64,000 nt of DNA from Betaproteobacteria bacterium (lineage in GTDB: Bacteria; Pseudomonadota; Gammaproteobacteria; Burkholderiales; SG8-39): the NCBI GenBank assembly GCA_016713125.1, contig JADJPT010000007.1, positions 29,198 to 93,197 on the forward strand. The letters run 5' to 3'. This document shows, piece by piece, positions 3,880 through 35,328 of the stretch; the stretch's first letter is position 1; every line of letters starts with the position of its first letter. The position numbers and the translations under genes were made by a program. The notes under the pieces were generated by a model, which saw only the letters and a list, made by a program, of their open reading frames with translations, was not told the DNA's origin and searched no databases.

Positions 3880-4142
3880 GTGGGTGTTCCTCGGTGGCCT
3901 GGGTTCGGTTCGCAAAGCTATTGTCGGGATGCGGAAAGCTGCCTGTGCGCGAGAGTATAGAACGTGAGGAAGTTGCATGGCGTTGGTCGATTTCGGGGGC
4001 GGAACCGCGTGTTCGATGCCCTTCGCGAGCAGCAAAGCTGCACGCGTTTGCGCGAAAGCTATGCTGCCCGGCGTCGGATTTATGTTGTGTCCGGCGCCGG
4101 GCATTGAATAAGATTGAAGCTACATAGCTTTCCGGAGTCCCC

Positions 4143-7364: not shown

Positions 7365-7433
7365 GCCGCCAGGCCGCGCCCCGCCTGGTCGGGCAGCCTG
7401 CGCCAGATCGCGCAGGGCTATCGCGCCGATGCA

Positions 7434-15599: not shown

Positions 15600-15630
15600 G
15601 TTGCAATCAGGCCGCAGGCCTTATTGCAAC
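15600..15630. terminator. 14-bp-stem hairpin between the convergent J-domain gene and boxB
   Basis: GTTGCAATCAGGCC-GCA-GGCCTTATTGCAAC (one mismatch). It overlaps the boxB stop codon. No clear U-tract. Confidence 0.4.
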
Positions 15631-18713: not shown

Positions 18714-19603
18714 GCGGTTTCCCTGTTGCGCGCCGGCTGCACGCAGGCGCGCAGTTCGGCGAGGCTGTGGCGGATGCTGCGGCCCGCGGTGTCGACGCTG
18801 GCGTCGGCGCGGGCGTACAGCGGGGTGCGTTCGACCAGCAACTGGCGCAGGTCGTCCATGGCGGCGGCGTGGCCCTGGATGGGGCGCATGTCGCCCTGCG
18901 CCACCACGCGTGCCATGTGTTCTTCGGGCGCGGCGCGCAGCCACACTGTGTGGCAGGAGGAGAGCAGCCGCTCGTAGGTCTCGGGCGCCGACACCAGGCT
19001 GCCGCCGGTGGCGATCACCGCGGCGGGTTGCTCGGCCAGCACGCGTTCGAGCGCGCGGCGTTCGTAGCGGCGAAAGCCGTCCTGGCCGTACAGGCCGAAC
19101 AGTTCGGCCAGCGTGGCGCCGGCTTCGCGCTCGACCTCGCGGTCCAGTTCGATGAAGGGCACGGCAAGTTCCGCGGCGAGCAGGGCGCCCAGCGTGGACT
19201 TGCCCGCGCCGCGCAGGCCGACCAGCGCGATGTGCGCATGGCGGGCGCGGAAATGCTCGAGCAGCACGCGCTGCGCGCCCTCCAGCTGGGCGGGCGAGAG
19301 CCCGGTCAGCAGGCGCTGCACGGCGGCGGCCTCGGCCGGCGCACCCGAGGCTTCGCTGACCAGGGCTTCGAGCGGCATGCGCATGGCCTGCGCGAGCTGG
19401 CGCAGCAGCAGGATGGACATGTTGCCCTGGCCGGCTTCGAGCTGGGCCAGGTAACGTTCCGAAACACCGGAGGTCTGCGCCAGCACCTTGCGCGTCACGT
19501 GCTGGCGTTCGCGCCAGCTGCGCACGCGCTCGCCCAGGCGCAGCAGGAAGGCCTCGTCTTCGAGGTCGCTGTCCGAGGCGGCGTAGGCGGTGCTGGGATT
19601 CAT
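18710..19603 (-). CDS. boxR: BoxR/BzdR-type regulator (XRE HTH fused to a shikimate-kinase-like domain)
   Basis: ATG at 19603 (MNPSTAYAAS...). HTH RKVLAQTSGVSERYLAQLEAGQGN and P-loop GLRGAGKST. The stop overlaps the boxC start (ATGA). Confidence 0.8.
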   Translation of the reverse strand: MNPSTAYAASDSDLEDEAFLLRLGERVRSWRERQHVTRKVLAQTSGVSERYLAQLEAGQGNMSILLLRQLAQAMRMPLEALVSEASGAPAEAAAVQRLLTGLSPAQLEGAQRVLLEHFRARHAHIALVGLRGAGKSTLGALLAAELAVPFIELDREVEREAGATLAELFGLYGQDGFRRYERRALERVLAEQPAAVIATGGSLVSAPETYERLLSSCHTVWLRAAPEEHMARVVAQGDMRPIQGHAAAMDDLRQLLVERTPLYARADASVDTAGRSIRHSLAELRACVQPARNRETA

Positions 19604-19627
19604 CGGCTTGGTGCTCGTGAATGTCGT

Positions 19628-19670
19628 ATGCAATATAATGCTTGCATCGATGATCTGTTGCAATATAATG
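19628..19670. promoter_or_regulatory. box divergent promoter/operator: TGCA-containing repeats and two TATAAT boxes
   Basis: Inverted repeat ATGCAA-N8-TTGCAT (19628-19647). The 12-nt direct repeat TGCAATATAATG occurs at 19629-19640 and 19659-19670. TTGCAT-16 nt-TATAAT forms a sigma70-like promoter facing the flavodoxin/bclA operon. Confidence 0.6.
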
Positions 19671-19728
19671 TAAGTCAAGAATTGCCCCACATCAACGACG
19701 CCGCCAACTTCCGACGCAGCCACGCCCG

Positions 19729-20217
19729 ATGAGCGACAAACTCAAACTCACCATCCTGGTCGGCACCATGACCGGCACCGCGCAACTCGTGGCCCAGGAA
19801 CTGGAGCTGGCCTGGGACGGCGAGGAGGCCGAGGTGCAGACCCTGCTGATGGACGGCCTCGACGCGAGCGTGTTCCGTCGCCCCGGCCTGTTCCTGCTGT
19901 GCACCTCGACCTACGGGCAGGGCGACGTCCCGGACAACGCACGCAAGCTCTACGAGGATCTGGCCGCGGCGCGGCCCGACCTCTCCGGGGTGCGCTACGG
20001 CGTGTTCGGCCTGGGCGACCGCACCTATGCCGAGACCTTCAATTTCGGCGGCAGGAAGTTCGACGAGCTGCTGCTCGCGCTGGGCGCGCGGCGCATCGGC
20101 GAGCGTGTGCAGCACGACGCCTCATCGGGCGTGCTGCCCGAGGAACGGGCAGAGGAGTGGGCGCCGGGCTGGCTGACCGAGGCGCGCGCCGCGGCGCAGG
20201 CGCCGGCCGCGGCCTAG
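19729..20217 (+). CDS. flavodoxin-domain protein (MioC-like)
   Basis: 162 aa. FMN-loop LVGTMTGTAQ and TSTYGQGDVPDN...GLGDRTY. Confidence 0.75.
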   Translation: MSDKLKLTILVGTMTGTAQLVAQELELAWDGEEAEVQTLLMDGLDASVFRRPGLFLLCTSTYGQGDVPDNARKLYEDLAAARPDLSGVRYGVFGLGDRTYAETFNFGGRKFDELLLALGARRIGERVQHDASSGVLPEERAEEWAPGWLTEARAAAQAPAAA

Positions 20218-20266
20218 CCGCAGCCTGCCGCAGGCCAGATAATAATAAGCAGAAGGAGGAGAGGGC

Positions 20267-21835
20267 ATGGCTCATACGCAAGCCGATCATTCGGTATCCC
20301 CGCCGCGCGTGCCGATCCCGCGCGATTACAACGCCGCGGTCGACCTGATCGAACGCAACCTGGCGGCCGGGCGCGGCGACAAGCCCGCCTTCATCGACGA
20401 CGCGGGCACGCTCACCTATGCCGAACTCGCGCAGCGCGTCGACCGCTGCGGCAGCGCGCTGCGCGGCCTCGGTCTGGCGCAGGAAGACCGCGTCATGCTG
20501 GCCATGCTCGACACCTGCGACTGGCCGGTGGCCTTTCTCGGGGCGATCAAGGCCGGCATCGTGCCGATCGCCGCCAACACCCTGCTGACCACGCGCGACT
20601 ACGCGTTCATGCTGGCCGACAGCCGCGCCAAGGCGCTGATCGTCTCCGAGGCCCTGCTGCCGGCCTTCGCCCCGCTGCTCGACACGCTGCCGTTCCTCAG
20701 GCACGTGATCGTGGCCGGCAAGGACACGCAGGGGCACCTGGGGTTCGCCGCACTGCTCGCGCAGGGCAGGCCGGCACTGGAGGCCGCGCCCACCACCGCT
20801 GACGACGCCTGCTTCTGGCTGTATTCCTCGGGTTCCACCGGCACGCCCAAGGGCACCGTGCACGTGCACTCCAGCCTGATCCTCACCGCCGAACTCTATG
20901 CGCGGCCCATCCTCGGCATCCGCGAGGACGACGTGGTGTACTCGGCGGCCAAGCTGTTCTTCGCCTACGGGCTGGGCAACGGCCTGACCTTCCCGATGGC
21001 GGTGGGCGCCACCGCCGTGCTGATGGCCGAGCGGCCCACGCCGGCTGCGGTGTTCAAGCGCCTGCTCGAACGCCGTCCGAGCATCTTCTACGGCGTGCCC
21101 ACGCTGTACGCGGCGCTGCTCGCCAGTCCCGAGTTCCCGGCGCGCGGCCGGCTCGCGCTGCGCGTCTGCGCCTCGGCCGGCGAAGCGCTGCCGGCCGACC
21201 TGGGCCGGCGCTGGACCGAGCGCACCGGCACCGAGATCCTCGACGGCATCGGCTCGACCGAGATGCTGCACATCTTCCTGTCGAACTCGCCCGGCCAGGT
21301 GCGCTACGGCTCGACCGGGCGCGCGGTGCCCGGCTATCGCCTCAAGGTGCTCGACGAGCAGGGCGTGCCGGTGAAGCCCGGCGAGGTCGGCGACCTGTAC
21401 ATCGCCGGGCCCACGGCGGCCAACGGCTACTGGAACCAGCGCGAGAAATCGCGCCTCACCTTCCAGGGCGAATGGACCAAGAGCGGCGACAAGTACGTGT
21501 TCGACGAGCAGGGCGTGTACACCTACGCCGGGCGCTCCGACGACATGCTCAAGGTCTCGGGCATCTACGTTTCGCCCTTCGAGGTCGAGGGCGCGCTGCA
21601 GACCCACCCGGCGGTGCTCGAGTGCGCGGTGGTCGGCCACCCCGACGCCGACGAACTGGTCAAGCCCAAGGCCTTCGTGGTGCTCAAGCCCGGCGCCGCA
21701 GTGGGCGAGGACGAGCTCAAGGCGCACGTCAAGTCGGTGCTGGCGCCCTACAAGTACCCGCGCTGGCTGGAGTTCGTGACCGAGTTGCCGAAAACCGCCA
21801 CCGGCAAGATCCAGCGCTTCAAGCTGCGCGGCTGA
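20267..21835 (+). CDS. bclA: benzoate-CoA ligase
   Basis: 522 aa. [26 protein letters not shown]... N-terminus, [11 protein letters not shown], and C-terminal [14 protein letters not shown]. It lies in the box cluster. Confidence 0.8.
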
Positions 21836-21851
21836 GCGCGGGGGCGCGGCG

Positions 21852-22595
21852 GTGACCGTCGACAGCGTGCGCGGCTGGGTCGCCGCGGCCCGCCGCGTGG
21901 TGGTGCTCACCGGGGCCGGCATCTCGACCGAATCGGGGATTCCGGATTTCCGCGGGCCCGACGGCGTGTGGACGCGCGACCCCGAGGCCGAGAAGCTCTC
22001 CGACATCCGCCATTACCTGGGCGACCCGGCGGTGCGCCGCCGCGCCTGGCAGAAGCGACTCACCGCCCCGGCCTGGCAGGCGCGGCCGAATGCCGGGCAT
22101 GCGGCCCTGGTTGAACTGGAGCGGCGCGGCGCGCTGCATGCGCTGATCACGCAGAACATCGACGGCCTGCACCAGAAGGCCGGCAGTTCGCCCGACAAGG
22201 TGATCGAGGTGCACGGCACCATGCACGAGGTGGTGTGCCGCGGCTGCGCGCGGCGCGGCCCCATGCTGCCGGTGCTCGAGCGCGTGCGCGCCGGCGAGGA
22301 GGACCCGGCCTGCGCGCACTGCGGCGGCATCCTGAAGAGCGCCACCATCCTGTTCGGCGAAGGCCTGGAGCCCGGCGTGATGGAGCGCGCGCTGCGGGCG
22401 GCCGAGGCGGCCGACCTGCTGCTCGCGGTCGGCAGCAGCCTGCAGGTGTATCCGGTGGCCGGCGCGGTGCCTGCGGCCAAGCGGGCCGGCGCGCGCCTGG
22501 TGATCGTCAACGCCGAACCGACGCCCTTCGACGACCTCGCCAACGCCGTGCTGCGCGGTTCCATCGGCGAGATCCTGCCGCGGCTGGTGGCCTGA
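21852..22595 (+). CDS. NAD-dependent protein deacylase, Sir2 family
   Basis: 247 aa. [22 protein letters not shown], and zinc cysteines CRGC...CAHCGG. Confidence 0.85.
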
Positions 22596-23091: not shown

Positions 23092-23407
23092 ATGCTGGGC
23101 GGCTTGTTCAAATCCGGACGTATCGACGCCTTCGCGCATGCGCTGGCCGATGAACTCGCGCCGCGCCTGTCGGCCGCGGCCGGCGGCGCGCGCGCCTCGC
23201 GCGACGGGGTGAAGCAGATGGAACGTTTGTTCGCCGAGGCCGAGTCGCGCGCCATCGCCTTCTCGCGCGAGCTGCGCCTGGGCGTTTACGGCAAGGCGCG
23301 GCTGTGCACTCGCTGCGCTGGCGGCTCACCGAACAGGCGCCGACGCGACCCTGCTGGCCACCGCGATGGAGCGCATCGTCGCCGCCGTGTCGCGGGACCG
23401 GGGCTGA
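23092..23407 (+). pseudogene. ~105-aa hypothetical protein, frame broken twice as sequenced
   Basis: MLGGLFKSGRIDAFAHALADEL...GKARLC (frame 1), SLRWRLTEQ (frame 2), GADATLLATAMERIVAAVSRDRG-TGA (frame 3). The breaks are at ~23308 and ~23337. Confidence 0.45.
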
Positions 23408-23409
23408 GC

Positions 23410-25095
23410 ATGACGCTCAGACGCTGGCTGGGCAGGCTGCAGGGTCGGCTCGAGGCGCGCGCGCGCGTGCTCGCGACCGGCGAGGCGCCGCCGGCCGCCG
23501 CGGCCGAAGCCGAGGCCGGATCGGTTTCCGAAACCATCGTCGCCGCACGGCGCGCGCTGGCCGCCGCTCCGAACGACCCGGGACTGGCGCTCGCGCTGGT
23601 GCAGGCCCTGGCCGGGGCCGGACGCCCCGCGGAGGCGGCGCTGGCCGCGCGCGAGGGCGCCGAGGTGGCGCGGCGCATGGGCGCACATGAAATCGAACTC
23701 GAGTGCTGTGCCCTGTGGCTGGCGCAGGACCCGCAGTCGGCCGACGCGCGCATCGCGCGCGCGCATGCGCTGGCGGCGGCCGGGCGCGCGGCCGAAGCCG
23801 CCGCCGAATACGAGGCGGTGCTGTCCGCGCACGGCCCGCAACTCGCCGTGCTGCTGCGCCTGGGCGCGGTCTACCACGACATGGTGCGGCCGCAGGACGC
23901 GCACCGCACCTACCTGCAGGCGGTGCAACTCGAACCGGACAACGTCGACGCGCTGTGCGTGGCCGGCATGAGCGCCCGCGACCTGGGCGAGACCGTGCAG
24001 GCTGAAGTGTTCCTCGCCCGCGCGCAGGCCGCCGCGCCGGACTCGGCGCACGCCACCTTCAACCTCGGCCTGGTGCGCCTGGACCAGGGGCGCATCGCCG
24101 AGGCCTCCGAGGCGTTTCGCGGCGCGCGCGCGCTGAACCGCGGCGCACCCTGGCGCGAGGCGGAACTCGCCGCGCACCTGGCCGCGGGCACCTGCGACCC
24201 CAACGACCGCGACTGGGGCGCCTCGCGCTTCAAGCTTGCGCACGACATCCAGCAGCTCGAATACCTGCGCGCGGCGGGCAGGCTCGGCCCGGCCTTCGAT
24301 CCGGTCCTGGTCGAGTACCGCTACGCGCTGACCGATCGCCGGCTGCCCGAAGATCCGTACACCATGGTCGGGCTGGACCCGCGCCGCTATCCGCTGCTGG
24401 CGGCCACCTACAAGCGGCCGCTGTACGCGCCGGACCCCGAGCCGCCGCAGGGCCCGTTGGTGAATCCGGACCTGCCCTGGGCCGAGCTCGAGCAGCTCTA
24501 CCTCGACGCGAAACCGAACATGGTGTGGATCGACGGGCTGCTGACCCCGGCGGCGCTGGCGGCGGTGCGCGCCTACTGCATGGAAAGCACGATCTGGAAC
24601 GACCTCAAGGGCGGCTACCTGGGCGCCTACATGCACGACGGCTTCGCCGGCCGCCTGCTGCTGGGCATATCGGCCGAGCTGCGCGCGCGCATGCCGCGCG
24701 TGATCCGCGAGCGGCCGCTGCAGACCATGTGGGGCTACAAGTACGATTCGCGCTACTCGGGCACCGGTGTGCATGCCGACGTGGCCGCGGTGAACGTGAA
24801 CTTCTGGGTCACGCCGGACGAGGCCAACCTCGACCCGGACAGCGGCGGGCTGATCGTGCACGCGCACGAGGCGCCGCGCGACTGGGGCTTCCAGCGCTTC
24901 AACATGGAGCACGAGGAGATCTACAAGTACCTGGATTCGGTCGGCAGCCGCGCGGTGAAGATCCCCTACCGCGCCAACCGCGCGGTGATCTTCGATTCCG
25001 ACCTGTTCCACGAGACCGATGCGTTCCGCTTCCGCGACGGCTACGCGGACCGGCGCATCAACGTCACCATGCTGTACGGCACGCGCGAGGGCTGA
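23410..25095 (+). CDS. TPR-repeat protein with a C-terminal 2OG-Fe(II)-oxygenase-like domain
   Basis: ATG at 23410 (MTLRRWLGRLQG...). Ala-rich TPR region. The C-terminus has an HxD (GVHADV) and a distal His (LFHETD) in a double-stranded beta-helix context. Confidence 0.6.
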   Translation: MTLRRWLGRLQGRLEARARVLATGEAPPAAAAEAEAGSVSETIVAARRALAAAPNDPGLALALVQALAGAGRPAEAALAAREGAEVARRMGAHEIELECCALWLAQDPQSADARIARAHALAAAGRAAEAAAEYEAVLSAHGPQLAVLLRLGAVYHDMVRPQDAHRTYLQAVQLEPDNVDALCVAGMSARDLGETVQAEVFLARAQAAAPDSAHATFNLGLVRLDQGRIAEASEAFRGARALNRGAPWREAELAAHLAAGTCDPNDRDWGASRFKLAHDIQQLEYLRAAGRLGPAFDPVLVEYRYALTDRRLPEDPYTMVGLDPRRYPLLAATYKRPLYAPDPEPPQGPLVNPDLPWAELEQLYLDAKPNMVWIDGLLTPAALAAVRAYCMESTIWNDLKGGYLGAYMHDGFAGRLLLGISAELRARMPRVIRERPLQTMWGYKYDSRYSGTGVHADVAAVNVNFWVTPDEANLDPDSGGLIVHAHEAPRDWGFQRFNMEHEEIYKYLDSVGSRAVKIPYRANRAVIFDSDLFHETDAFRFRDGYADRRINVTMLYGTREG

Positions 25096-25128
25096 GGCCG
25101 CGGGCCGGCCCGATTCGGGCAGCCTGGG

Positions 25129-25932
25129 TCAGGCGGCCTGGCGGGGGTGCTCGTACATGTAGAACCAGACCAGCGCGCCCAGCACCAGCTTGTCGTTGGG
25201 CGCCAGATCGACGAACTCGACGCCGTGCCGGTGGCGCGGCGCCTCGCCGTTTTCCTCCTCGGTCTTGACCGCGCGCACCACCGCCTGCAGCTTGAGCCGC
25301 GTCTGCACGCCGTGCAGGTCGACTTCGAAGGCGAGCTTGAGCTTGTCGCCCGGCGCGCCCAGGGGCTCGAGGGCGGTCACCAGGGCCCCGGTGCTGCTGA
25401 TGTTGTCCATGCGCGCCTGCACCGCCGGCTTGCCGCCGTCTGCGCCGACCTCCACCGGCAGGTCGACCCGGTAGCGCGGCGAACTGCGCACTTCGATGCC
25501 GGTGACGTTGTCGGGAAACGACAGGTGCAGCAGGTGGAAGGGCGGGGTCAGCGAATGCAGCACCGAGCTGCGGAAGGCGAAGGCGTTGCGCCCGGTGAAG
25601 GCGCGCAGCATGACGATCTCGCCGCTGCGCAGTGCGAGGCGGCCGCGCGCAGTCATCGGCGCACTGAGGATCAGGCTCTCGCCATCGACCCAGCCGACCA
25701 CGTTGATGGTGACGCGACCGGCCGACATCTGCGGCGGGGGCTCGAGTTGCACGCGGTCGCCGACCTTGAGACGCATGTCGCGGAAGGCATAGGCGACCGG
25801 CGTCCCGGCGGGTGCGGCGGCGGCGGGCGCAGGTGCGGCAGCAGGCGCGGCGGCAGCCGGTGCAGCGGCCGGGGCCGCCGCTGCGGCCGGGGCTTCCGTG
25901 GTGGTGGGCTCGGCATCCATGACGCTATGCAT
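25129..25932 (-). CDS. YcgR-like PilZ-domain (c-di-GMP-binding) protein with an Ala/Pro-rich N-terminus
   Basis: PilZ motifs RSSPRYR and DNISSTGALV. A preceding YcgR-N-like barrel. N-terminal APAAAAAPAAAPAAAAPAAAPAPAAAAPA. Confidence 0.7.
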   Translation of the reverse strand: MHSVMDAEPTTTEAPAAAAAPAAAPAAAAPAAAPAPAAAAPAGTPVAYAFRDMRLKVGDRVQLEPPPQMSAGRVTINVVGWVDGESLILSAPMTARGRLALRSGEIVMLRAFTGRNAFAFRSSVLHSLTPPFHLLHLSFPDNVTGIEVRSSPRYRVDLPVEVGADGGKPAVQARMDNISSTGALVTALEPLGAPGDKLKLAFEVDLHGVQTRLKLQAVVRAVKTEEENGEAPRHRHGVEFVDLAPNDKLVLGALVWFYMYEHPRQAA

Positions 25933-25954
25933 AACGGCCGCCGGACGGCGGACT

Positions 25955-26683
25955 TTAGCTCCGCGTGCCGCAGCCTCCGACGGGGCGCTGCAGGCGTCGC
26001 ACCCGGCGTTCGATGCCGCGCCACGCCCCCGAACCGTCGAGCAGCGCGTTCAGCCAGCCGCTGGCGGTGCAGTAGTGCGTGGCGAAGGGCGGCACATGGT
26101 GCAGCCTGTGCATGTCCGGCGGCAGGATCAGGCCCAGGCGCTGCGCGCTCCGCACCCAGGCGGGCAGGGTGGCCGGTTCGCAGTGCGCCCATTTGTGGCA
26201 CTGGTTGGTGAGCAGCGCGGCCAGCGCGAACATCAGCAGCGCGGGCAGGGCCAGCCGCGCCGCCGGCGTGTCCGGACCCAGCACGGCGGCCAGCGCCAGC
26301 GCCGGCAGCGCGGCCAGGCAACTGGCGCCGTTGGTCTCGATGAAATCGTGACGCGTGATGGCCTGCGGGTCGGCATGGTGCTCGCGGAACGGGCGGATCA
26401 GGGCGGGGCCGAGAAAGCGCGTGTGCACGCTGCCCCAGGTGTCGAAGCTCCAGTGCGCCAGCCCGCTGCCCAGGTCCGCGGCCAGCCAGGCCAGCGGCAG
26501 GCACAGCAGGCACCAGGCGAGCATCCAGCCCTGGCCGGGCGCGGCGATGGCCGCGGCCAGGCGCAGCGCGCAGTACACGAACAGCAGGGTCCAGGCGACG
26601 ATGGCGGCGAGTTCGATCAGGCGCTGCGGTGCGCCATAGCGCGACAGGGCCTGCGCCTCGGGTCGGGTCGGCGGGCCACTCAT
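25955..26683 (-). CDS. CarF/TMEM189 (PEDS1)-family membrane lipid desaturase-like protein
   Basis: ATG at 26683, overlapping the upstream stop (ATGA). 242 aa. Histidine boxes HWSFDTWG, FREHHADP, NQCHKWAH and MHRLHH in a polytopic membrane protein. Confidence 0.65.
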   Translation of the reverse strand: MSGPPTRPEAQALSRYGAPQRLIELAAIVAWTLLFVYCALRLAAAIAAPGQGWMLAWCLLCLPLAWLAADLGSGLAHWSFDTWGSVHTRFLGPALIRPFREHHADPQAITRHDFIETNGASCLAALPALALAAVLGPDTPAARLALPALLMFALAALLTNQCHKWAHCEPATLPAWVRSAQRLGLILPPDMHRLHHVPPFATHYCTASGWLNALLDGSGAWRGIERRVRRLQRPVGGCGTRS

Positions 26684-27813
26684 CCGTACGGCGTGCGCTT
26701 GCCGCGCCTGCGGAACGGATACAGCAGCTGGCCCACCCAGGTCTCGGGCGGCTGGAACTCGACGGTGCCGTAGTTCTTCGGCCAGTGGTCGGGCAGGTGC
26801 GCGGTGCCGAAGACGCGGTCCCACAGCGGCAGGAAACTGGCGAAGTTCTTGTCCAGGCCTTCCTCGTCCGAGGTGTGGTGCCAGTGGTGGAATTCCGGCG
26901 TGGCGATCACCCAGCGCAGCAGCGGCCAGCGCCAGCGCACGTTGGCGTGGATGTACACCGCGTGGAAGGACACGAACACCAGGTAGGCGTACAGCGCGGC
27001 CGGCGCGAAGCCGAGCACGAACACCGGCAGGAAGGCCGCGGCGCGCGTCACCAGCACGTCGACGATGTGCATGCGCGAGCCGGCCAGCCAGTCCATCTGC
27101 CGGCTCGAGTGGTGCACGGCGTGGAAGCTCCACAGCCAGGGCACCGAGTGGAAGGACCGGTGCACCCAGTAGGTCATGAAGTCCACGGCCAGCAGGATCT
27201 CGATGAACTGCAGCCACAGCGGCTGCGCGGCCACCGCCTTCTGGAAATCGAGCTGCAGGGTCCAGGCGAACAGGGCCTGGGCGGGGATCATGCTGGCGAA
27301 GGACAGCAACTGCACGCCGGCATGGCTGACGAAGAAATGCTTGAGGTCGGTCTGCCAGCCGGCGCGAAAGATGTTCTGCCTGCGCAGCGCATAGAGGCGT
27401 TCCAGCGGCACGAACAGCAGCGCCAGCACCAGCAGCTCGAGCACGAAGTAGTCCAGGCCGGCGGCGAACGCCCGGCCACCCGCTGCGCCGAGCTCCACGG
27501 GCTCGGCCTGGGCGCCGCCCATCAGCAGCGCGACCGCACCCAGGCCGATGCCGATCAGGCCGTAGGTCTTGGAGCGCAGCAGCAGGATGCTGGCCGCGCC
27601 CAGCGCGAAGGCGGCGAGGATGCAGGCCTGCAGGATGGTGCGCAGCAGGCCCAGGTGGGCGACGTAGAACGGCAGGGCATCGCGCGTGACCAGCAGGTCG
27701 GGCAGCAGGAAGCACAGCACGGCCAGCACGCACAGCGCGCCGAGCACGCCCGAAGCCACGCCGGTGCGCTTGCCGACCTCCGCGCGCGCACGCGCCGACA
27801 GCAGGCGCTTCAC
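26680..27813 (-). CDS. fatty-acid hydroxylase / sterol-desaturase superfamily membrane protein with an extra N-terminal TM domain
   Basis: 377 aa. Eight-His motif HRSFH...HAVHH...HAVYIH...FHHWHH. Confidence 0.7.
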   Translation of the reverse strand: MKRLLSARARAEVGKRTGVASGVLGALCVLAVLCFLLPDLLVTRDALPFYVAHLGLLRTILQACILAAFALGAASILLLRSKTYGLIGIGLGAVALLMGGAQAEPVELGAAGGRAFAAGLDYFVLELLVLALLFVPLERLYALRRQNIFRAGWQTDLKHFFVSHAGVQLLSFASMIPAQALFAWTLQLDFQKAVAAQPLWLQFIEILLAVDFMTYWVHRSFHSVPWLWSFHAVHHSSRQMDWLAGSRMHIVDVLVTRAAAFLPVFVLGFAPAALYAYLVFVSFHAVYIHANVRWRWPLLRWVIATPEFHHWHHTSDEEGLDKNFASFLPLWDRVFGTAHLPDHWPKNYGTVEFQPPETWVGQLLYPFRRRGKRTPYG

Positions 27814-28073
27814 GCTGCGGGCGCGCCCAGCTTCTGCGCCAGCGCCTCGAGCTCGGCGGCGATCACCGCCTCGCCGCCGCGTCCGGCCGGAAACGGCCGG
27901 GCGGCGCGGCCGTACCAGTAGCGCGCGTTCGACAGGTCGTCCTCGATCAGGTGGACGATGCCGTGCGCCCAGCAGGCGAGCGGCCCGTCCTCGGCCTGCA
28001 CGATGACGTGCGCCGCCTGCCAGTCGCGGGCGAGCAGCAGGGCGTAGGCCTTGCGCAGGGGTTGTCGCGTCAT
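27810..28073 (-). CDS. 87-aa hypothetical protein, first gene of the lipid-desaturase operon
   Basis: MTRQPLRKAYALLLARDWQAAHVIVQ...LSNARYWYGRAARP... Its stop overlaps the next start by 4 nt. Confidence 0.5.
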   Translation of the reverse strand: MTRQPLRKAYALLLARDWQAAHVIVQAEDGPLACWAHGIVHLIEDDLSNARYWYGRAARPFPAGRGGEAVIAAELEALAQKLGAPAA

Positions 28074-28093
28074 GTGCGCCGCGCCTCGTTCCG

Positions 28094-28711
28094 CTACTCG
28101 CGCAGCTTGCGCGCCTCTTTGGCGGCGGGGCGCTCGATGCTGGCCTGCAGCCAGGCGTTAAGCTTCGGGAACTTCGACAGGTCGTATTTCATCGCGGTCA
28201 GCGTGTACAGCACGCTGGCCACCATGAAGTCGGCCATGTTCCACGACGCGCCGCCGAAGTACGGCGTCTTGTTCAGCTGCTCCTCGAAGGTCTTCAGGCG
28301 CGCCAGCAGCTGCGCCTCGGCCGCCTCGGCGATCGCCGGGTTGCGTTTCTCGGGCGGAAACAGCGCGCGATGCTGGTACAGCGTGATCATCGGCGGCTCG
28401 ACGTCGTTCGAGGTGAAGAAGGCCCACTGCAGCATCTGCGCCCGGCCGGCCGGGGTGGCCGGATACAGCGGGCTCTTGTGCTGCTCGGCCAGGTACAGGT
28501 TGATGGCCGAGGTCTCCCAGACCACCACGCCGTCGTCGTCCACGGTGGGCACGCGCGCGTTGGGGTTGAGGGCCACGTACCAGGGCTCCTTGCATTCGGG
28601 CTTGTCGGCCGTGATGCTGACCGGGATGTGCTCGTAGGGGATGTTGCTTTCCTTGGCGAGCCAGATGACGCGGAACGCGCGGGAACGGGCCTGGCCGTAA
28701 ATCTTCAGCAT
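28094..28711 (-). CDS. glutathione S-transferase
   Basis: ORF trimmed to the ATG at 28711 (MLKIYGQARSRAFRVIWLAKE...VPTVDDDGVVVWETSAINLYL). 205 aa. Confidence 0.75.
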   Translation of the reverse strand: MLKIYGQARSRAFRVIWLAKESNIPYEHIPVSITADKPECKEPWYVALNPNARVPTVDDDGVVVWETSAINLYLAEQHKSPLYPATPAGRAQMLQWAFFTSNDVEPPMITLYQHRALFPPEKRNPAIAEAAEAQLLARLKTFEEQLNKTPYFGGASWNMADFMVASVLYTLTAMKYDLSKFPKLNAWLQASIERPAAKEARKLRE

Positions 28712-28868
28712 GATGACTCCGGGATGACGTGGGGAGGGTGCGGGGTGCGCGTCTTCGAAACGGTATGCGCCGTGCCCGACCGCGACGATAGAATGCCTGT
28801 GGCGGTCCGGCAAGCGCAGTTCGCTGCGCGGCCCGGGCAAGCCCAACCATAATACGAGGAGAGATACG

Positions 28869-29851
28869 ATGCGCGTCGTTCTGAAACTAGCCGCACTGCC
28901 GCTGGCCCTGCTGGCGCTCGCGTCCTCGGGCGCCGCGCAGGCCCAGGCCGCCTACCCGAACAAGCCGATCCGCTTCATGGTCGGTTTCCGCCCGGCGGCA
29001 GCGCCGACGTGGCCAGCCGCACCATTTCGCAGCGCCTCTCGGAGCGCCTGGGTCAGCCGCTGATCATGGACAACCGCGCCGGCGCCGGCGGCATGGTCGG
29101 CCTGGAGGCCATCGCCAAGTCGACGCCCGACGGCTACACCATCGGCATCGGCACCTCGGGTGCGCTGACCGTGAACCCGACGCTGCGCAGCAAGCTGCCC
29201 TACGACCCGCTCAAGGACTTCGCGTACATCTCCACCATGGTGGTGAACCCGATCGCGCTGACCATCAGCCCCTCGCTGCCGCCGCAGAACATGAAGGAGT
29301 TCCTGACCTGGGCCAAGGGCCAGTCCTCGGCCAAGCTGTCGTTCGGCACCGCCGGCACCGGCACCGCCATGCACCTGGCCGGCGAAGTGCTGAACCAGAT
29401 GGCCGGCATCACCATCGTGCACGTGCCGTACAAGGGCAGCGCCCCGGCGGCCGTGGACCTGATGGGCGGCCAGATCCCGCTGGCCGTGCTCGACCTCGCG
29501 GCCGGCCTCACGCACATCCGCGCGGGCAAGATCCGCGCGCTGGGCATGACCTCGCTGAACCGCTCGCCGGTGGCGCCCGAGATCCCCACCATCGCCGAAA
29601 CCGGCGTGCCGGGCTATGACGTGCGCAGCTGGTTCGGCATCGTCGCGCCGGCCGGCACGCCCCCGGAGATCATCGCCCGGCTGAACGCCGAGATCGTCGC
29701 CGTGCTCGGCAGCCAGGAAGGCAAGGACCGCATGGTCGCCTCCGGCCTGGAAGCTTCGCCCTCGACCCCGCAGGCGTTCCTCGACACGGTACGCAGCGAG
29801 ATCCCGCGCTGGGCCGGCGTGATCAAGGCGGCGGGCATCAAACTGGAGTGA
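28869..29851 (+). pseudogene. Bug-family (tripartite tricarboxylate transporter) periplasmic binding protein, one frameshift as sequenced
   Basis: Signal peptide + YPNKPIRFMVGF in frame 1. (PPGGS)ADVASRTISQRLSERLGQPLIMDNRAGAGG... to 29851 in frame 2. The break is at ~28989. Confidence 0.75.
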
Positions 29852-29855
29852 GCGT

Positions 29856-31513
29856 TTGAAAGCATCGAGTCTGGGACTGGCCGGCTACTGGCCCAAGCGT
29901 TTCCGGCGCAGCCTGACCGCGCCGCGCACCACCCTGGCGGCCAACCTGGCGGTGGCGGCGCTGCGCTACGGCGATGCGCCGGCCATCCACAGCCTCGGGC
30001 GCACGCTGGCTGGCGCGAATTCGCCGCCCAGGCCGATGCCTTCGCCGGCTGGCTGCAGCACGCCGGTGTGCGGCGCGGCGACCGCGTGCTGATCTACATG
30101 CAGAACTCGGCGCAGTGGCTGATCGCCTATTTCGGCGCGCTGCGCGCCGACGCCGTGGTGGTGCCGGTCAACCCGATGAACCGCACCGACGAGCTGCACC
30201 ACTACCTGCAGGACTCCGGGGCGAAAGTGGCGGTGTGCGCGCAGGACCTGGCGCCCGCGCTGCTCGCCGCCGCGCCGGGCACCGCGCTGGAGCAGGTGGT
30301 GGCCGCCACCTACTCGGATTACGTGCCGGCCGACACGCCGTTCAACGTTCCCGACTGGCTGCGTGCGCCGCGCATCGAGGTGGCCGGCTGCACCGCCTGG
30401 CAGGCGGCACTGGACGCGGGCCATGTGCCGGGTGCGCCGCAGGCCACGCCGGAAGACCTCGCCCTGCTGCCGTATACCTCGGGTTCCACCGGCCTGCCCA
30501 AGGGCTGCATGCACACCAGCGCCAGCTTCATGCACAACGTGGCGGGGCTGGCGCTGTGGCACGGCATCGCGGCCGGCGACCCCTGCCTGGGCGTGGCGCC
30601 GATGTACCACGTGTCCGGCCTGACCCACAGCATCAACGTGCCGGTGTATGCCGGGGCCTGCATCGTGGTGGTGCCGCGCTGGGAGCGGCGCCTGGCCGCG
30701 CAGCTGATCGAGCACTATCGCGTGGTGCACGCCAGCATGGCGCCCACCGCGGTGATCGACCTGCTGGCCGACCCGCAGCTCGAGCGCCATGACCTCACCA
30801 GCCTGCGGCGCATCGGTTCGGGCGGCTCGGCCATGCCCGACGAGGTGTGGAAGCGCCTGAACGAGCGCATGGGCATTCCCTACATCGAGGCCTACGGCAT
30901 GACCGAGGCCGCCGCCACCACGCACAACAATCCGGTCGACCGGCCCAAGCGCGCCTGCCTGGGCATCAACTGGTTCGACAGCGAGTCCTGCGTGATCGAC
31001 CCGGACACCCTGCAGCCGCGCGCGGTGGGCGAGCCCGGCGAGATCGTCATGCGCGGGCCGCAGATGTTCAAGGGCTACTGGAACCGCCCGGAGGACACCG
31101 CCGCGGCCTGGGTGGAGATCGACGGCCGCCAGTGGTACCGCTCGGGCGACATCGGCTACGTCGACGAGGAAGGCTACTTCTTCATGACCGACCGGCTGAA
31201 GCGCATGATCAACGCCTCGGGCTTCAAGGTCTGGCCGGCCGAGGTGGAGAGCGTGCTGTACGCGCATCCCGACGTGCTCGAGGCCTGCGTGGTCGGCGTG
31301 GCCGACGCCTACCGCGGAGAGAACGTGAAGGCGCTGCTGGTGCTGCGCGAAGGCGCCGCGCTCGACAATGAGGCGTTCAGCGCCTGGGCGCGCGAACGCA
31401 TGGCCGCCTACAAGGTGCCGCGCGTCGTCGAGTGCGTGCCTTCGCTGCCCAAGTCGCCGGTGGGCAAGATCCTCTGGCGCGAGGTGCAGGACCGCGAGAA
31501 CGCGGCGCGCTGA
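29856..31513 (+). pseudogene. AMP-dependent acyl-CoA ligase, one frameshift as sequenced
   Basis: TTG start at 29856. ...AIHSLGRTL then WREFAAQADAFAGWLQHAGVRRGDRVLIYMQN... in the -1 frame (break ~30008). Motifs YTSGSTGLPKG and PKSPVGKILWRE. Confidence 0.75.
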
Positions 31514-31635
31514 GCGGGGTGCTCCCCAAGAGAGTGGCAGCAATCCCCCTGGAACACGGCTGCCAGCGCGGGGTTCGGAAAAAATGTGGCAGTAATGCTG
31601 GAGCGCGGCGTCCGGCCGCGCTGCGCCGCCGTCCG

Positions 31636-32588
31636 CTACTTCTTCGCCGGCTTGCGCCGCGCGGCGGCTTTGGCCACGGGCTTCGATGCGGGCTTCTGGG
31701 CTTCGCCGAGGACTTGGCCGCGGGTTTCGCGGCCTTGCCGCCCGGGCGCGCGACCGCGGCCAGGCCGGGCTTGAAGCTCTTGTTGTCGAGGAACTCGCGC
31801 ATGCCGCGCTCGCGCGTGCGCTCGGGGTCCTTGGCTTCCAGCGCGGTGATCTTGGCGATCAGGTAGTCGTAGGCCTGCTCCATGTCCATGGTGCGCACCT
31901 GGCGGATCGCCTGCTTGGTGTAGGCCAGCACCATCGGGCTCTTGCTCATCAGCTCGCGCGCCAGGGCCACGGTCTCGGCGCGCAGCTTCTTCGCCGGCAC
32001 CGAGAAGTTCACCAGCCCCATCTCGGCGGCCTTCCTGCCCTTGAACGGCCGGCCGGTGGTGGCGTAGTACATGGCGTCGCGGATGCGCAGCGTGTCGACC
32101 AGCACCTTGCTGACCACGCCGCCGGGCACGATGCCCCAGTTGATCTCGGACAGGCCGAACACCGCGTCGTCCGAGGCGATGGCGAAATCGCAGTTGCACA
32201 GCGGGATGAAGGCACCGCCGAAGCAGTAGCCGTTGACCATGGCGATGACCGGCTTGCGCCCGCGCACCAGGGCGTCCCAGGACCAGCGCCGGTTGTCGGT
32301 GTAGGAGCGGAACTGCGCCTGCGCGTCGCCGTCGGTGTCGCGGAAGTATTCCTTGAGGTCCATGCCCGCGCTCCACGAGTTGCCGGCGCCGGTCAGCACG
32401 ATGACCTTGGTGTCCGGGTGCGTCTCGTGCTCGTCCATGATCTGCGCCATCTCGGCGTGCAGGGTCGGGTTCATGGCATTGCGCTTCTCCGGGCGGTTGA
32501 AGGTCACCCAGGTGATGCCTTCGCGGTCGGTCTCGACCTTGACGCATTCGTAATCGCTGCGCGGCTGCTTCGGGTACTTGACGGGCAT
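31636..32588 (-). CDS. ech: hydroxycinnamoyl-CoA hydratase-lyase (HCHL/Ech-type crotonase) with a Lys/Ala/Pro-rich C-terminal tail; the tail needs one frame correction
   Basis: ATG at 32588. FNRPEKRNAMNPTLHAEM...GAGNSWSAGMDLKEYF...GLSEINWGIVPGG...FLDNKSFKPGL closely parallels Pseudomonas HCHL. After ~31698 the frame shifts to give ...KPASKPVAKAAARRKPAKK-TAG (31636). Confidence 0.75.
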
Positions 32589-32620
32589 TGCGTGGCCTTT
32601 CTTTGCTGGATGAAGGTGAT

Positions 32621-33769
32621 CTAGAGCGTGGCTTCGGTGCCCAGGAGCACCGTGACCTGCGAGGAGAGGGTGCCGCCGTTGCCGTTGCACAGCGCGACTT
32701 CGGCGCCGGCGACCTGGCGCTCGCCGGCCGTGCCGCGCAGCTGGGTGGCGGCTTCGGCCAGCAGGAAGATGCCGTACATGCCCGGATGCACGCACGACAG
32801 CCCGCCGCCGTTGGTGTTCACCGGCAGCCGGCCGCCCGGGGCGATCGCGCCGCCGGCGACGAAGCTGCCGCCTTCACCCTTGGCGCAGAAGCCGAGGTCT
32901 TCGAGCGCGAGCAGCGTGTTGATGCTGAAAGCGTCGTAGATCTCGGCCACGTCCACGTCGGCCGCACCCAGGCCGGCCATCGCGAACGCGCGCGGGCCGG
33001 ATTCGCTGGAGGCGGTGACGGTGAGGTCGGGCATCGAGGAGATCTGACGGTGCCAGACCGCGGTGGCGCCGCCGAGGAAGTACACCGGCTTGTTCGGCAG
33101 GTCTTTGGCGCGCTCGGCGCGCACCATGACGACGGCGCCGGCGCCGTCGGTCACCAGGCAGCAGTCGCGCACGGTGAGCGGGTCGCACAGCGTGCGCGAG
33201 GCGCGCACCTGTTCGATGGACAGCGGATCGCGCATGAAGGCGTCGGGGTTGAGGCGCGCCCAGGCGCGCGCGGCCACCGGGATCTCGGCCAGCTGCTCGA
33301 CCGTGGTGCCGTACTGGTGCATGTGGCGCGCGGCGGCCAGCGCGAACGGGCCGACCATGTAGCTGGGCTTGTAGTCGACTTCGAAGGGCGGCGCGTCGGA
33401 GAAGTTCACCGGGCGCTTCGCGGTGCGCTGGTTGGAGCCGTAGCAGATCAGCGCCACGTCGCACAGCCCGGCCTGCAGCGCCAGCGTGGCCTTGAGCGCG
33501 AAATCGACGAACGACGAGCCGCCGATGTTGCTGGCGTCGACGAAGCGCGGCCGGATGCCGAGGAAATCCGCGGTCGACAGCCCGGGCAGGAAGTTCACCG
33601 AGTTGGCGGTGAACAGGCCGTCGACGTCGGTGAGTTTGAGCCCGGCATCGGCCAGCGCCGCGTGCGCGGCCTGGCTCAGCAGTTCCAGGTGGGTGTGGCC
33701 GGGCGCCTCGCCCAGCCCGGCCAGGCCGACGCCGACGATGGCGGCCGCGCCGCGCAGCGCATGCGCCAT
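32621..33769 (-). CDS. thiolase-fold protein (SCP-x / lipid-transfer-type thiolase family)
   Basis: 382 aa. AAIVGVGLAGLGE...CYGSNQRT...NTNGGGLS pattern. It lies 33 nt upstream of ech. Confidence 0.6.
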   Translation of the reverse strand: MAHALRGAAAIVGVGLAGLGEAPGHTHLELLSQAAHAALADAGLKLTDVDGLFTANSVNFLPGLSTADFLGIRPRFVDASNIGGSSFVDFALKATLALQAGLCDVALICYGSNQRTAKRPVNFSDAPPFEVDYKPSYMVGPFALAAARHMHQYGTTVEQLAEIPVAARAWARLNPDAFMRDPLSIEQVRASRTLCDPLTVRDCCLVTDGAGAVVMVRAERAKDLPNKPVYFLGGATAVWHRQISSMPDLTVTASSESGPRAFAMAGLGAADVDVAEIYDAFSINTLLALEDLGFCAKGEGGSFVAGGAIAPGGRLPVNTNGGGLSCVHPGMYGIFLLAEAATQLRGTAGERQVAGAEVALCNGNGGTLSSQVTVLLGTEATL

Positions 33770-33771
33770 GC

Positions 33772-34752
33772 TCAGTTGGCCTTGATGCCGGCGGCGCGCA
33801 CCACCTCGCCCCAGCGGCCGAGCTCGCGGCGCAGGAAGCCCTCGAGGTCCTCGTTGGGCGTGGCGGGCAGGTCGGCGCCGAAGGCGCGATAGCGCTCGCG
33901 CAGGTCGGGTTCGCGCAGCGCGGCCTGCGCGCTGGTGCGGATCTTCGCGGCGATGTCGGCCGGCAGGTTGGCCGGGCCGATCAGCAGGAACCAGGTCACG
34001 GCTTCGAAGCCGCCGATGCCCTGTTCCGCGAAGGTCGGCACGTCGGGGATGGAGCTGTTGCGCTCCTTCGCCGGCAGACCGATGGCGCGCAGCTTGCCCG
34101 AGCGGATGTGCGGCAGCACCGTCGACACCGTGGCGAAGGCCATGGTGATCTGCCCGCCGAGCAGGTCGTTGATCGCCGGGGCCATGCCCTTGTAGGGCAC
34201 GTGCGTCATCTTGACGTTGTAGTGCAGGTTCAGGAACTCGCCGGCCAGGTGGGCCTGCGAACCGTTGGCCGGCGAACCGAAGGTCAGCGTGTTGGGGTAG
34301 GCGCGGGCGAAGCCGGCCAGGTCGTTCATGGTCTTGACCGGCACCGCGGCGTTCACCACCAGCACGTTGTCGATGTTGGCCACGCGCGCGATCAGCGTGA
34401 AGTCCTTGAGCGGGTCATAGGGCAGCTTGGGGAACAGGTGCGGGTTCACGCCCAGGGTGTTGGTCGGCGCGATCAGCAGCAGTGCGCCGTCGGGCGGGGC
34501 GTTCTTGACCAGCTCCATGCCGAGGATGCCCGAGGCGCCGGGGCGCGCCTCGACGATCACCGGCTGCTTCCAGGCGGCCTGCAGTTTCTCGCCCAGCACG
34601 CGCGCCATCAGGTCGGTCGGTCCGCCGGCGGGGAAACCGGTGATCAGACGCACCGTCTTGGTGGGGTAGGTCTGCGCCTGCGCGCCGCTCAGCGGCAGGC
34701 CGGCAAACAGGACGAGCAAGGCGGCGGCGATTCGGGATGCGGGCTTGTTCAT
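33772..34752 (-). CDS. Bug-family TTT periplasmic binding protein
   Basis: ATG at 34752. Signal peptide then YPTKTVRLITGFPAGGPTDLMARV. Confidence 0.8.
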   Translation of the reverse strand: MNKPASRIAAALLVLFAGLPLSGAQAQTYPTKTVRLITGFPAGGPTDLMARVLGEKLQAAWKQPVIVEARPGASGILGMELVKNAPPDGALLLIAPTNTLGVNPHLFPKLPYDPLKDFTLIARVANIDNVLVVNAAVPVKTMNDLAGFARAYPNTLTFGSPANGSQAHLAGEFLNLHYNVKMTHVPYKGMAPAINDLLGGQITMAFATVSTVLPHIRSGKLRAIGLPAKERNSSIPDVPTFAEQGIGGFEAVTWFLLIGPANLPADIAAKIRTSAQAALREPDLRERYRAFGADLPATPNEDLEGFLRRELGRWGEVVRAAGIKAN

Positions 34753-34860
34753 GGCGCGGCTCCTGGTGGCGTGTGGATAGGGTGGTGCGCGGAAAACCGG
34801 TTGCGGCATGGGGGTGGCCGGAACGGTGGATGCGAAATCGTGCCTGCGCACGTCATGCGT

Positions 34861-35304
34861 TCAGTGCATTTCACCGATGTCCTCGTTCCACAGCCCGGGG
34901 CGAGCGGCGATGAAGCCGCGCATCAGCGCGATGCAGGTCTCGTCCTGCACCACTTCGACCTCGACGCCGCGATCGCGCAGCAGCGCCTCCTCGCCCATGA
35001 AGCTGCGGTTCTCGCCGATCACCACCTTCGGGATGCCGTACAGCAGGATCGCACCGCTGCACATCGCGCAGGGCGACAGCGTGGTGTAGAGCACGCATTC
35101 CCGGTACACCTGCGCCGGCTGGCGTCCGGCGTTCTCGAAGGCGTCCATCTCGCCGTGCAGGATGGCGCTGCCCTTCTGCACCCGCCGGTTGCGGCCGCGG
35201 CCGATGATGCGGCCGGCGTGCACGATCACCGAGCCGATCGGGATGCCGCCCTCGGCCAGGCCGGCCTGCGCTTCGGCAATGGCGGCCTGCAGGAAAGCGG
35301 GCAT
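34861..35304 (-). CDS. FCY1-type (yeast-like) cytosine/nucleoside deaminase
   Basis: 147 aa. GGIPIGSVIV...RVQKGSAILHGEMDAFENAG...YTTLSPCAMCSGAILLYGIPKVVIGEN...WNEDIGE is near-collinear with yeast Fcy1. Confidence 0.7.
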   Translation of the reverse strand: MPAFLQAAIAEAQAGLAEGGIPIGSVIVHAGRIIGRGRNRRVQKGSAILHGEMDAFENAGRQPAQVYRECVLYTTLSPCAMCSGAILLYGIPKVVIGENRSFMGEEALLRDRGVEVEVVQDETCIALMRGFIAARPGLWNEDIGEMH

Positions 35305-35328
35305 GCGCGGGTTTCCGTCCGGCCGGCT

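Follow-up and report, generated by a model that had tools for sequence, protein, structure and literature searches.

To our knowledge, the plasmanylethanolamine desaturase called PEDS1 or TMEM189 in animals and CarF in Myxococcus xanthus is the only enzyme known to form the vinyl-ether bond aerobically, and its bacterial biology is understood in myxobacteria only. CarF and human PEDS1 are interchangeable in vivo. A survey of GTDB genomes counted just 73 bacterial genomes in which PEDS1, AGPS, GNPAT and FAR are all present, of which 61 belong to Myxococcota and 12 lie outside this phylum, and the published tree also contained an all-bacterial PEDS1-like clade of 229 sequences (PMC13012113). Another member of the same protein family (PF10520) is FAD4, the plant plastid delta-3-trans desaturase acting on the sn-2 16:0 chain of phosphatidylglycerol. 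The FA_hydroxylase superfamily (PF04116) comprises the alkylglycerol monooxygenase AGMO (TMEM195) of animals and OlsE of Rhizobium and Agrobacterium, which hydroxylates the ornithine head group (C4) of ornithine lipids (PMC12971839). Here, we analysed a 64,000-nucleotide (nt) stretch of DNA, hereafter the window, from a betaproteobacterial genome assigned to the Burkholderiales (assembly GCA_016713125.1, contig JADJPT010000007.1, positions 29,198 to 93,197). In this window, a gene encoding a CarF/PEDS1-like protein of 242 amino acids (aa) overlaps a gene encoding a 377-aa protein of the FA_hydroxylase superfamily. The pair and its overlap are the following:

26680-27813, minus strand: 377-aa open reading frame (ORF) with a GTG start, encoding an FA_hydroxylase-superfamily membrane di-iron oxygenase with an N-terminal multi-transmembrane extension (MBK8064139.1)
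25955-26683, minus strand: 242-aa ORF with an ATG start, encoding a CarF/PEDS1-like membrane di-iron desaturase (MBK8064138.1)
26680-26683, minus strand: ATGA stop/start overlap of 4 nt between the 377-aa and 242-aa genes, read from the sequence

The overlap is predicted to couple the translation of the two genes. GenBank entries identical to the two proteins, from a 157.9-kb contig of a metagenome-assembled genome labelled "Betaproteobacteria bacterium", are named "sterol desaturase family protein" (377 aa) and "carotenoid synthesis regulator CarF" (242 aa).

The desaturase and hydroxylase genes form a conserved pair

To assess the distribution of the pair, GTDB species representatives were scanned for relatives of the 242-aa protein, the best 80 of 251 loci were taken, and further loci were added via protein look-ups (loci are cited below by their L numbers). 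Results showed that 24 of the 28 loci in the proteobacterial clade of the 242-aa protein, counting the window, have a gene for a 377-aa homologue that overlaps the CarF-like gene or is no more than about 60 nt away from it. The two genes were seen in either order, and the flanking genes were otherwise unrelated. The pair was also found in metagenome-assembled genomes (MAGs) labelled Acidobacteriota and Thermoanaerobaculia (L020 and L012), while all the myxobacterial carF loci examined lack the 377-aa gene. Since the pair recurs in this large majority of clade loci and in unrelated contexts, its adjacency is more than chance, and we conclude that the two genes are a real functional unit whose linkage has been selected for. 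The initial annotation of this DNA, made from the sequence alone, had proposed a desaturase working with a second di-iron enzyme, a combination that is indeed kept in many genomes of soil and water bacteria. The pairwise identities of the two proteins correlate as well (r=0.64), a value attained in none of 2000 Mantel permutations.

The linkage is one-way. Sequences of the 377-aa protein are on average 69% identical in pairwise comparison, those of the 242-aa protein 54%. Among seven sampled close 377-aa homologues located on long contigs, three have a CarF-like neighbour (L081, L092 and the P0226 contig) and four have none; homologues with 75-79% identity and no CarF-like gene within 5 kb were found in L086, L087, L088 and L091. 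The hydroxylase is therefore the autonomous partner, being more conserved and often alone, and dependence lies with the desaturase. The hydroxylase also has another recurrent partner, observed in two loci (L087, 3394-6104; L091, 3394-6113), where homologues with 78-79% identity overlap by 4 nt an upstream gene encoding a 536-aa AMP-binding protein of the coenzyme A (CoA)-ligase type.

The 242-aa protein carries the residue set of functional PEDS1 enzymes

Pfam analysis placed the 242-aa protein in PF10520 (Lipid_desat) with an E-value of 5e-52 and 176.9 bits, compared with a gathering score of 26.4, over positions 1-167 of the 175 of the model. This agrees with the CarF/TMEM189 assignment first made from the histidine motifs HWSFD, EHHADP, HKWAH and HRLHH, all of which are found in the translation. 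Eight histidines are conserved in all PF10520 homologues and needed for activity (PMC8960569). By alignment, these correspond to H77, H102, H103, H163, H167, H192, H195 and H196 of the 242-aa protein, to H78, 103, 104, 164, 168, 191, 194 and 195 of CarF, and to H96, 121, 122, 187, 191, 215, 218 and 219 of mouse PEDS1. A ninth histidine, H112 in the motif AITRHDF, corresponds to CarF H113 and mouse H131, and is invariant in 27 tabulated clade loci and in a 21-sequence alignment. This residue is present in functional PEDS1s and absent both in plant FAD4, which usually has an arginine, and in alphaproteobacterial homologues (PMC9131029). The conserved histidine set on which the initial annotation had made the assignment depend is thus complete, with all nine members in place. 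In addition, D81 (HWSFD) and F99 (PFREHH) align with D100 and F118 of mouse PEDS1, both essential (PMC8960569). On this basis, the 242-aa protein is predicted to possess a catalytically competent residue set.

The M. xanthus CarF sequence used for comparison was taken from locus L042, with its twelve histidines at the positions given in the literature, and the human PEDS1 and human AGMO sequences were confirmed as exact matches before use. The 242-aa protein shares 42.6% identity with M. xanthus CarF and 39.5% with human PEDS1, which share 44.7% with each other. Its four hydrophobic segments are placed as in M. xanthus CarF, according to hydropathy. The score on the CarF equivalog model NF045946 (cut-off 500 bits) was 175 bits for the 242-aa protein, 571 for M. 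xanthus CarF and 234 for human PEDS1; the failure of the 242-aa protein on this model says little, because human PEDS1, a proven functional equivalent, also falls short. In a neighbour-joining tree (midpoint-rooted, with neither FAD4 outgroup nor bootstrap), the 242-aa protein fell in a separate, mainly Burkholderiales proteobacterial clade, sister to a group containing myxobacteria, human and Fluviispira. Thirty-three positions are invariant across the proteobacterial clade, the myxobacteria and human, and only two conserved positions discriminate the clade (S121 versus Asn and H203 versus Tyr). Cys162 is invariant among the aligned homologues. In the same tree, the CarF of a record labelled "Comamonas sp. 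KCTC 72670" (L078, BNCN01000001.1) was located inside Myxococcus, beside Myxococcus sp. Y35; this record is probably mislabelled or not Comamonas.

Taken together with PF10520 membership, the nine histidines, the Asp and Phe residues and the four-segment layout, identities of 40-43% make the 242-aa protein closely similar to CarF/PEDS1. It differs from them by its separate clade in the neighbour-joining tree, by the substitutions S121 and H203 with the invariant Cys162, by a nearly constant linkage to an FA_hydroxylase-family gene that CarF/PEDS1 do not have, and by hosts in which the AGPS/FAR/GNPAT precursor pathway is not known. FAD4 and the alphaproteobacterial CarF homologues have in common with the 242-aa protein the PF10520 domain, the eight-histidine motif and hosts without plasmalogens; unlike the 242-aa protein with its H112, they lack the ninth histidine and do not complement carF (PMC9131029). 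The family had initially been regarded as sparse in bacteria outside myxobacteria and a few other lineages, a view that our searches contradict, since it is abundant in Burkholderiales metagenome assemblies: 462 protein clusters were obtained at E<=1e-5, a relative was present at 251 GTDB species-representative loci, and about a third of the best 80 of these loci belong to Burkholderiales or other non-myxobacteria.

The 377-aa protein belongs to a subfamily without a characterised member

The 377-aa protein matched PF04116 over residues 206-337 (E-value 6.4e-33, 114.4 bits, threshold 31), which bears out its placement in the FA-hydroxylase/sterol-desaturase superfamily. The motifs HRSFH, HAVHH and FHHWHH were found in the translation, and the His boxes HX3-4H, HX2-3HH and HX2-3HH are all present, together with a ninth histidine. 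H218, H222, H231, H234, H235, H289, H309, H312 and H313 correspond to H132, 136, 145, 148, 149, 201, 221, 224 and 225 of AGMO, where the nine histidines are essential (PMC7911779). Across the 132-aa His-box core, the protein is 33% identical to human AGMO, and no similarity was found outside this core. Three AGMO residues are changed, namely E137 (S223), which we take to be a tetrahydrobiopterin-affinity residue, Q162 (M248) and Y236 (F324). Among the six essential non-histidine residues of AGMO (Q162, D233, N235, Y236, W243 and D244; PMC7911779), four are kept as D321, N323, W331 and D332, equivalent to D233, N235, W243 and D244. From this residue set, the 377-aa protein is predicted to be catalytically intact.

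The sole NCBIfam match was to the OlsE model NF052566, with 114 bits for a cut-off of 475 (residues 123-374, model positions 35-290 of 293). Human AGMO scores 57 bits on the same model. The nearest curated family is thus OlsE rather than AGMO, and the connection with AGMO lies at the level of the superfamily only. The kinship with AGMO suggested in the initial annotation holds as far as the superfamily and the nine histidines are concerned, and does not extend to Glu137 and Gln162, which are replaced, nor to the overall fit, which is better for OlsE. The transmembrane regions flanking the core are also arranged differently from those of AGMO. The 377-aa protein aligns along nearly the whole OlsE model; it differs from OlsE by its low score, by about 120 more N-terminal residues carrying roughly three added hydrophobic segments, and by the absence of ornithine-lipid synthesis genes near its gene. 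The extra N-terminal multi-transmembrane domain noted at first was recovered by hydropathy as several additional hydrophobic segments ahead of the first His box (residue 218).

An exhaustive search of 1.8 billion representative proteins revealed relatives of two sizes, the long ones of about 370 aa and the short ones of 250-300 aa. More than 100 clusters are 70-82% identical to the 377-aa protein, all of about 370 aa. The closest relatives of 250-390 aa score 99-138 bits on the OlsE model, and none of those tested reaches 475. The 377-aa protein would therefore represent a subfamily without a characterised member. A PDB search by sequence gave no match, and the AlphaFold2 (AF2) model, with a mean predicted local distance difference test (pLDDT) score of 72.3, returned transporter noise only when compared with the PDB by Foldseek (E>1.9). 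In a plasmid collection, only distant relatives of the 377-aa protein (43-47%) were detected, in Ralstonia and Sphingobium, with two inspected contexts that were uninformative; no CarF-like homologue was found there.

Additional lipid-type enzymes join the pair in other lineages

In ten loci, a PF00487 desaturase gene with the boxes HDAGH, HRAHH and QIEHH is located directly upstream of the CarF-like gene (L003, L005, L007, L009, L010, L014, L016, L021, L022 and L035). Six of these (L005, L007, L009, L014, L021 and L035) and the P0226 contig also carry a YegS/DAGK-type lipid kinase. The order in the six loci, at about 4000-7750, is YegS-type kinase, PF00487 desaturase, CarF-like gene and 377-aa hydroxylase; these four genes are also found on the P0226 contig, where the kinase comes behind the hydroxylase and lies on the other strand. 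Two of the six loci come from isolates, L035 from Actimicrobium antarcticum JCM 16673 and L021 from Oxalobacteraceae IMCC9480. Neither a PF00487 desaturase nor a YegS-type kinase was found in the window. In one of the six loci, a MAG contig labelled "Bradyrhizobium sp." (L007, JBLHMB010000055.1), the kinase and the PF00487 desaturase are 88-91% identical to those of the Oxalobacteraceae and Burkholderiales MAG loci L005 and L009, with which its CarF-like protein also groups in the tree; this contig is probably mis-binned.

Candidate functions of the pair

Our interpretation, which we put forward tentatively, is that the pair forms an O2-dependent lipid-tailoring module of two genes, not three, acting on a non-ether substrate. 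The 377-aa and 242-aa enzymes would use O2 to tailor one membrane lipid near its head-group end. We infer that the 377-aa enzyme would install a hydroxyl first, and that the PEDS1-like enzyme would then remove two hydrogens next to the carbon that bears the oxygen, in the way PEDS1 acts next to an ether oxygen, giving an alkenyl or enol (keto) lipid. A resident ester- or amide-linked lipid, of the ornithine-lipid or phosphatidylethanolamine type, would be a likelier substrate than a plasmanyl ether lipid. The extended loci with a PF00487 desaturase and a lipid kinase, along with OlsE as the nearest family, point to a lipid context for the pair. OlsB homologues have been reported in Burkholderiales (PMC12971839). 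The idea of an ornithine lipid draws on a remote resemblance, because OlsE scores far below the cut-off.

Several observations weigh against this interpretation. The 242-aa protein is as close to the validated PEDS1s as these are to each other and differs from them at only two clade-discriminating conserved positions, which on its face favours the same ether-lipid reaction. On the OlsE model, 114 bits compare with the required 475, and the tested 250-300-aa relatives fail too. The dependence of the desaturase on the 377-aa gene is not absolute: the CarF-like gene occurs alone in L002, L008 and L015, and with a PF00487 desaturase and no 377-aa gene in a Polaromonas MAG (L016). Speaking against an ether substrate, no AGPS, FAR, GNPAT, ElbD-type or acyltransferase-type ether-lipid gene was recognised among the subset of window genes checked, and inspection of the L081-L092 called genes and of the related flanks likewise revealed no recognisable gene for ether-lipid synthesis; this absence from the flanks is weak evidence, because M. 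xanthus carF is not adjacent to ether-lipid genes either.

The alternative closest to described biology is genuine aerobic plasmalogen synthesis, in which the 242-aa protein would be a plasmanylethanolamine desaturase making the sn-1 vinyl-ether bond, the 377-aa protein would act on the same ether lipids, and the alkyl-ether precursor would be supplied by genes at other genomic sites or by an unfamiliar route. Acidobacteriota make ether lipids, and the pair is present in the MAGs labelled Acidobacteriota and Thermoanaerobaculia. The identities to CarF and human PEDS1, the 33 invariant and two discriminating positions, the CarF-like four-segment topology, the similarly unlinked carF of M. xanthus and the complete histidine set including the PEDS1-specific H112, together with D81 and F99 (PMC9131029, PMC8960569), all agree with such a role. 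We nevertheless regard it as unlikely, given the rarity of the full aerobic pathway (73 bacterial genomes, with only 12 non-Myxococcota, alongside the 229-sequence PEDS1-like clade; PMC13012113), the lack of a recognised precursor gene among the checked window genes and the related flanks, and the tie to a hydroxylase for which myxobacteria, animals and Leptospira have no need. The 175 bits obtained on the 500-bit CarF model count for little here, human PEDS1 scoring 234, and the alphaproteobacterial homologue that failed to complement carF had no ninth histidine (PMC9131029). A different use of ether lipids would be the breakdown or remodelling of scavenged molecules, where an AGMO-like 377-aa enzyme would hydroxylate C1' of the alkyl ether to release an aldehyde and glycerol, and the PEDS1-like enzyme would turn alkyl ethers into labile vinyl ethers. 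A catabolic enzyme could stand alone as the 377-aa gene often does, and the 4-nt overlap with an AMP-binding gene in L087 and L091, the catabolic window neighbours (UbiD, thiolase, enoyl-CoA hydratase and CoA ligases), and the 33% core identity, nine histidines and four of six other essential residues shared with AGMO (PMC7911779) would fit this role. The residues shared with AGMO are possibly superfamily-wide, though, while its Glu137 and Gln162 are replaced by Ser and Met, OlsE is the better and longer match, and no conserved aldehyde dehydrogenase or plasmalogenase-type gene was seen beside the pair, so that we give breakdown only a low probability.

Eukaryotic sphingolipid delta-4 desaturase, C4-hydroxylase and ceramide kinase belong to the PF00487, PF04116 and DAGK-type families, respectively. 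The four-gene cluster of the six extended loci and of the P0226 contig would parallel this set, with the CarF-like protein as an extra desaturase, and could tailor ceramide-like or other amide lipids. This proposal has several points against it: both the PF00487 desaturase and the kinase are missing from the window, none of the loci was seen to have a serine palmitoyltransferase or ceramide-synthase gene nearby, and the YegS linkage, concentrated in closely related Oxalobacteraceae-type loci, could reflect shared ancestry. We consider it very unlikely. A non-lipid or polycyclic substrate, such as a hopanoid, a carotenoid or a hydrophobic xenobiotic, is slightly less improbable. The PF04116 superfamily also includes sterol and carotenoid enzymes, and GST, UbiD, HpaB, CoA-ligase and TctC genes are neighbours in the window, L081, L086 and L088. 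These neighbours vary between loci, the pair alone being conserved, and the partners added elsewhere are acyl-lipid-type enzymes; moreover, every PF10520 enzyme characterised so far works on glycerolipid chains (PMC9131029, PMC13012113). Finally, the two genes could be adjacent and independent, as each also occurs without the other. In 24 of 28 clade loci, however, they lie side by side in one order or the other, with frames that overlap or nearly abut and with differing flanks, and the two proteins diverge in a correlated manner, which makes the absence of any functional coupling highly improbable.

Genes adjacent to the pair

The genes surrounding the pair on the same strand are the following:

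28094-28714, minus strand: glutathione S-transferase (GST) gene with GST_N and GST_C domains, 20 nt upstream of the 87-aa gene
27810-28073, minus strand: 87-aa ORF, encoding a soluble protein with five predicted helices, possibly of a tetratricopeptide repeat (TPR)-like fold (MBK8064140.1)
27810-27813, minus strand: GTGA stop/start overlap of 4 nt between the 87-aa and 377-aa genes, read from the sequence
25129-25932, minus strand: YcgR-like PilZ gene with PF12945 and PF07238 domains, downstream of the 242-aa gene

The three-gene layout with 4-nt overlaps that was initially reported is correct, as the ORFs and the GTGA and ATGA sequences can be read directly, and hydropathy agrees with one soluble (87 aa) and two membrane proteins. 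The description of these genes as a dedicated three-gene operon did not withstand the comparison between genomes: the conserved unit is the 242/377 pair, and the 87-aa gene is promiscuous, with no CarF-like or hydroxylase gene beside its homologues in four of four sampled contigs. The 87-aa protein, whose identical GenBank entry is named "hypothetical protein", had no Pfam or NCBIfam match and gave nothing useful against the PDB by sequence (E>1.5). Its AF2 model consists of five helices (pLDDT 92.8), and a fold search against the PDB returned generic TPR domains only, with E-values of 0.46 or higher; a few homologues carry precomputed PF13432 matches, rated weak where rated. The family comprises 307 clusters at E<=0.001, with H22, H37, H41, E44, D46 and an NARYWY motif as invariant residues. 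In the confident five-helix model, this invariant His/Glu/Asp set resembles a possible metal or ligand site.

Homologues of the 87-aa protein were observed in L017, L023, L081-L086 and L088, and the succession of GST and 87-aa genes was seen again in L017, L023, L081, L083, L084 and L086, making it a recurrent pair of its own. The 87-aa gene is probably a co-transcribed passenger, as are the GST and PilZ genes, and it goes mostly with the upstream GST gene and not with the lipid enzymes. Two other candidate partners were rejected: a 278-aa secreted protein, encoded between the 87-aa gene and the hydroxylase gene in L086, is not conserved, and a short-chain dehydrogenase/reductase is found near four loci only. 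Conservation of the PilZ gene is limited to L089 and L090, which are contigs of the same species, and tblastn found none in L001-L088; the gene is a local neighbour outside the conserved module. Its reported distance of 22 nt from the 242-aa gene is confirmed if the start is at 25932, as called in the near-identical contig L089; the Pfam domains of this ORF do not begin before residue 56, and translation could instead start from an internal ATG at 25776.

The GST gene is probably the first gene of the transcription unit. A promoter and terminator scan of 24900-29100 detected no minus-strand terminator-like site and no sigma-70-like promoter site. Since no minus-strand terminator was detected from the GST to the PilZ gene, the GST, 87-aa, 377-aa, 242-aa and PilZ genes may form a single transcript. 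No Rfam match was found anywhere in the window.

Further from the pair, the surroundings (15621-22595 and 30068-36738) are of an aromatic- and acyl-CoA-catabolic type, and no lipid-synthesis genes were seen there. On one side are an enoyl-CoA-hydratase-type gene within a 1030-aa ORF, a regulator with helix-turn-helix and shikimate-kinase-like parts, and flavodoxin, CoA-ligase and Sir2 genes; on the other side are CoA-ligase, enoyl-CoA-hydratase, thiolase-like, TctC, deaminase and UbiD genes. This region shows synteny with L081 and, in part, with L087. A Bug/TctC-family solute-binding gene at 28869-29851 (plus strand) is split in two frames (28869..29063 and 29009..29851). Its counterpart in the 98.7%-identical contig L089 is intact (327 aa), with 3 gap columns in 1201 nt, and the split reflects either an indel in the assembly or very recent pseudogene formation. 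At 23092-25095 (plus strand), the window has one TPR ORF of 667 aa where L089 and L090 have two genes of 105 and 561 aa, which may be another indel between assemblies of the same organism.

Significance of the pair

The enzyme families and the GenBank names are already known, and a 2026 paper shows a large PEDS1-like clade in bacteria. Literature searches for a CarF-like/FA_hydroxylase pairing returned no description of it, of its tightness and asymmetry, of the optional third desaturase and lipid kinase, or of PEDS1-type residues in the absence of a known ether-lipid pathway. Members of the published bacterial PEDS1-like clade keep every catalytic residue and are nearly always joined to a conserved FA_hydroxylase-family enzyme that can stand alone. 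The pair provides a concrete two-gene handle on this clade. The question at stake is whether plasmalogens are made aerobically far more broadly than assumed or a second kind of lipid serves as substrate of PEDS1-type enzymes.

It is possible, if rather doubtful, that the module makes a lipid class not yet described in many aerobic Burkholderiales and in some other soil and freshwater bacteria. Such a class may consist of plasmalogens built on a precursor that does not come from AGPS, FAR and GNPAT, or of a new alkenyl, enol or keto lipid. If so, PEDS1-type chemistry would reach much further among bacteria, and be less bound to ether lipids, than the myxobacteria-centred picture suggests. Should the product be a new alkenyl, enol or keto lipid, a PEDS1-type active site would work beside an oxygen freshly added by its partner hydroxylase.

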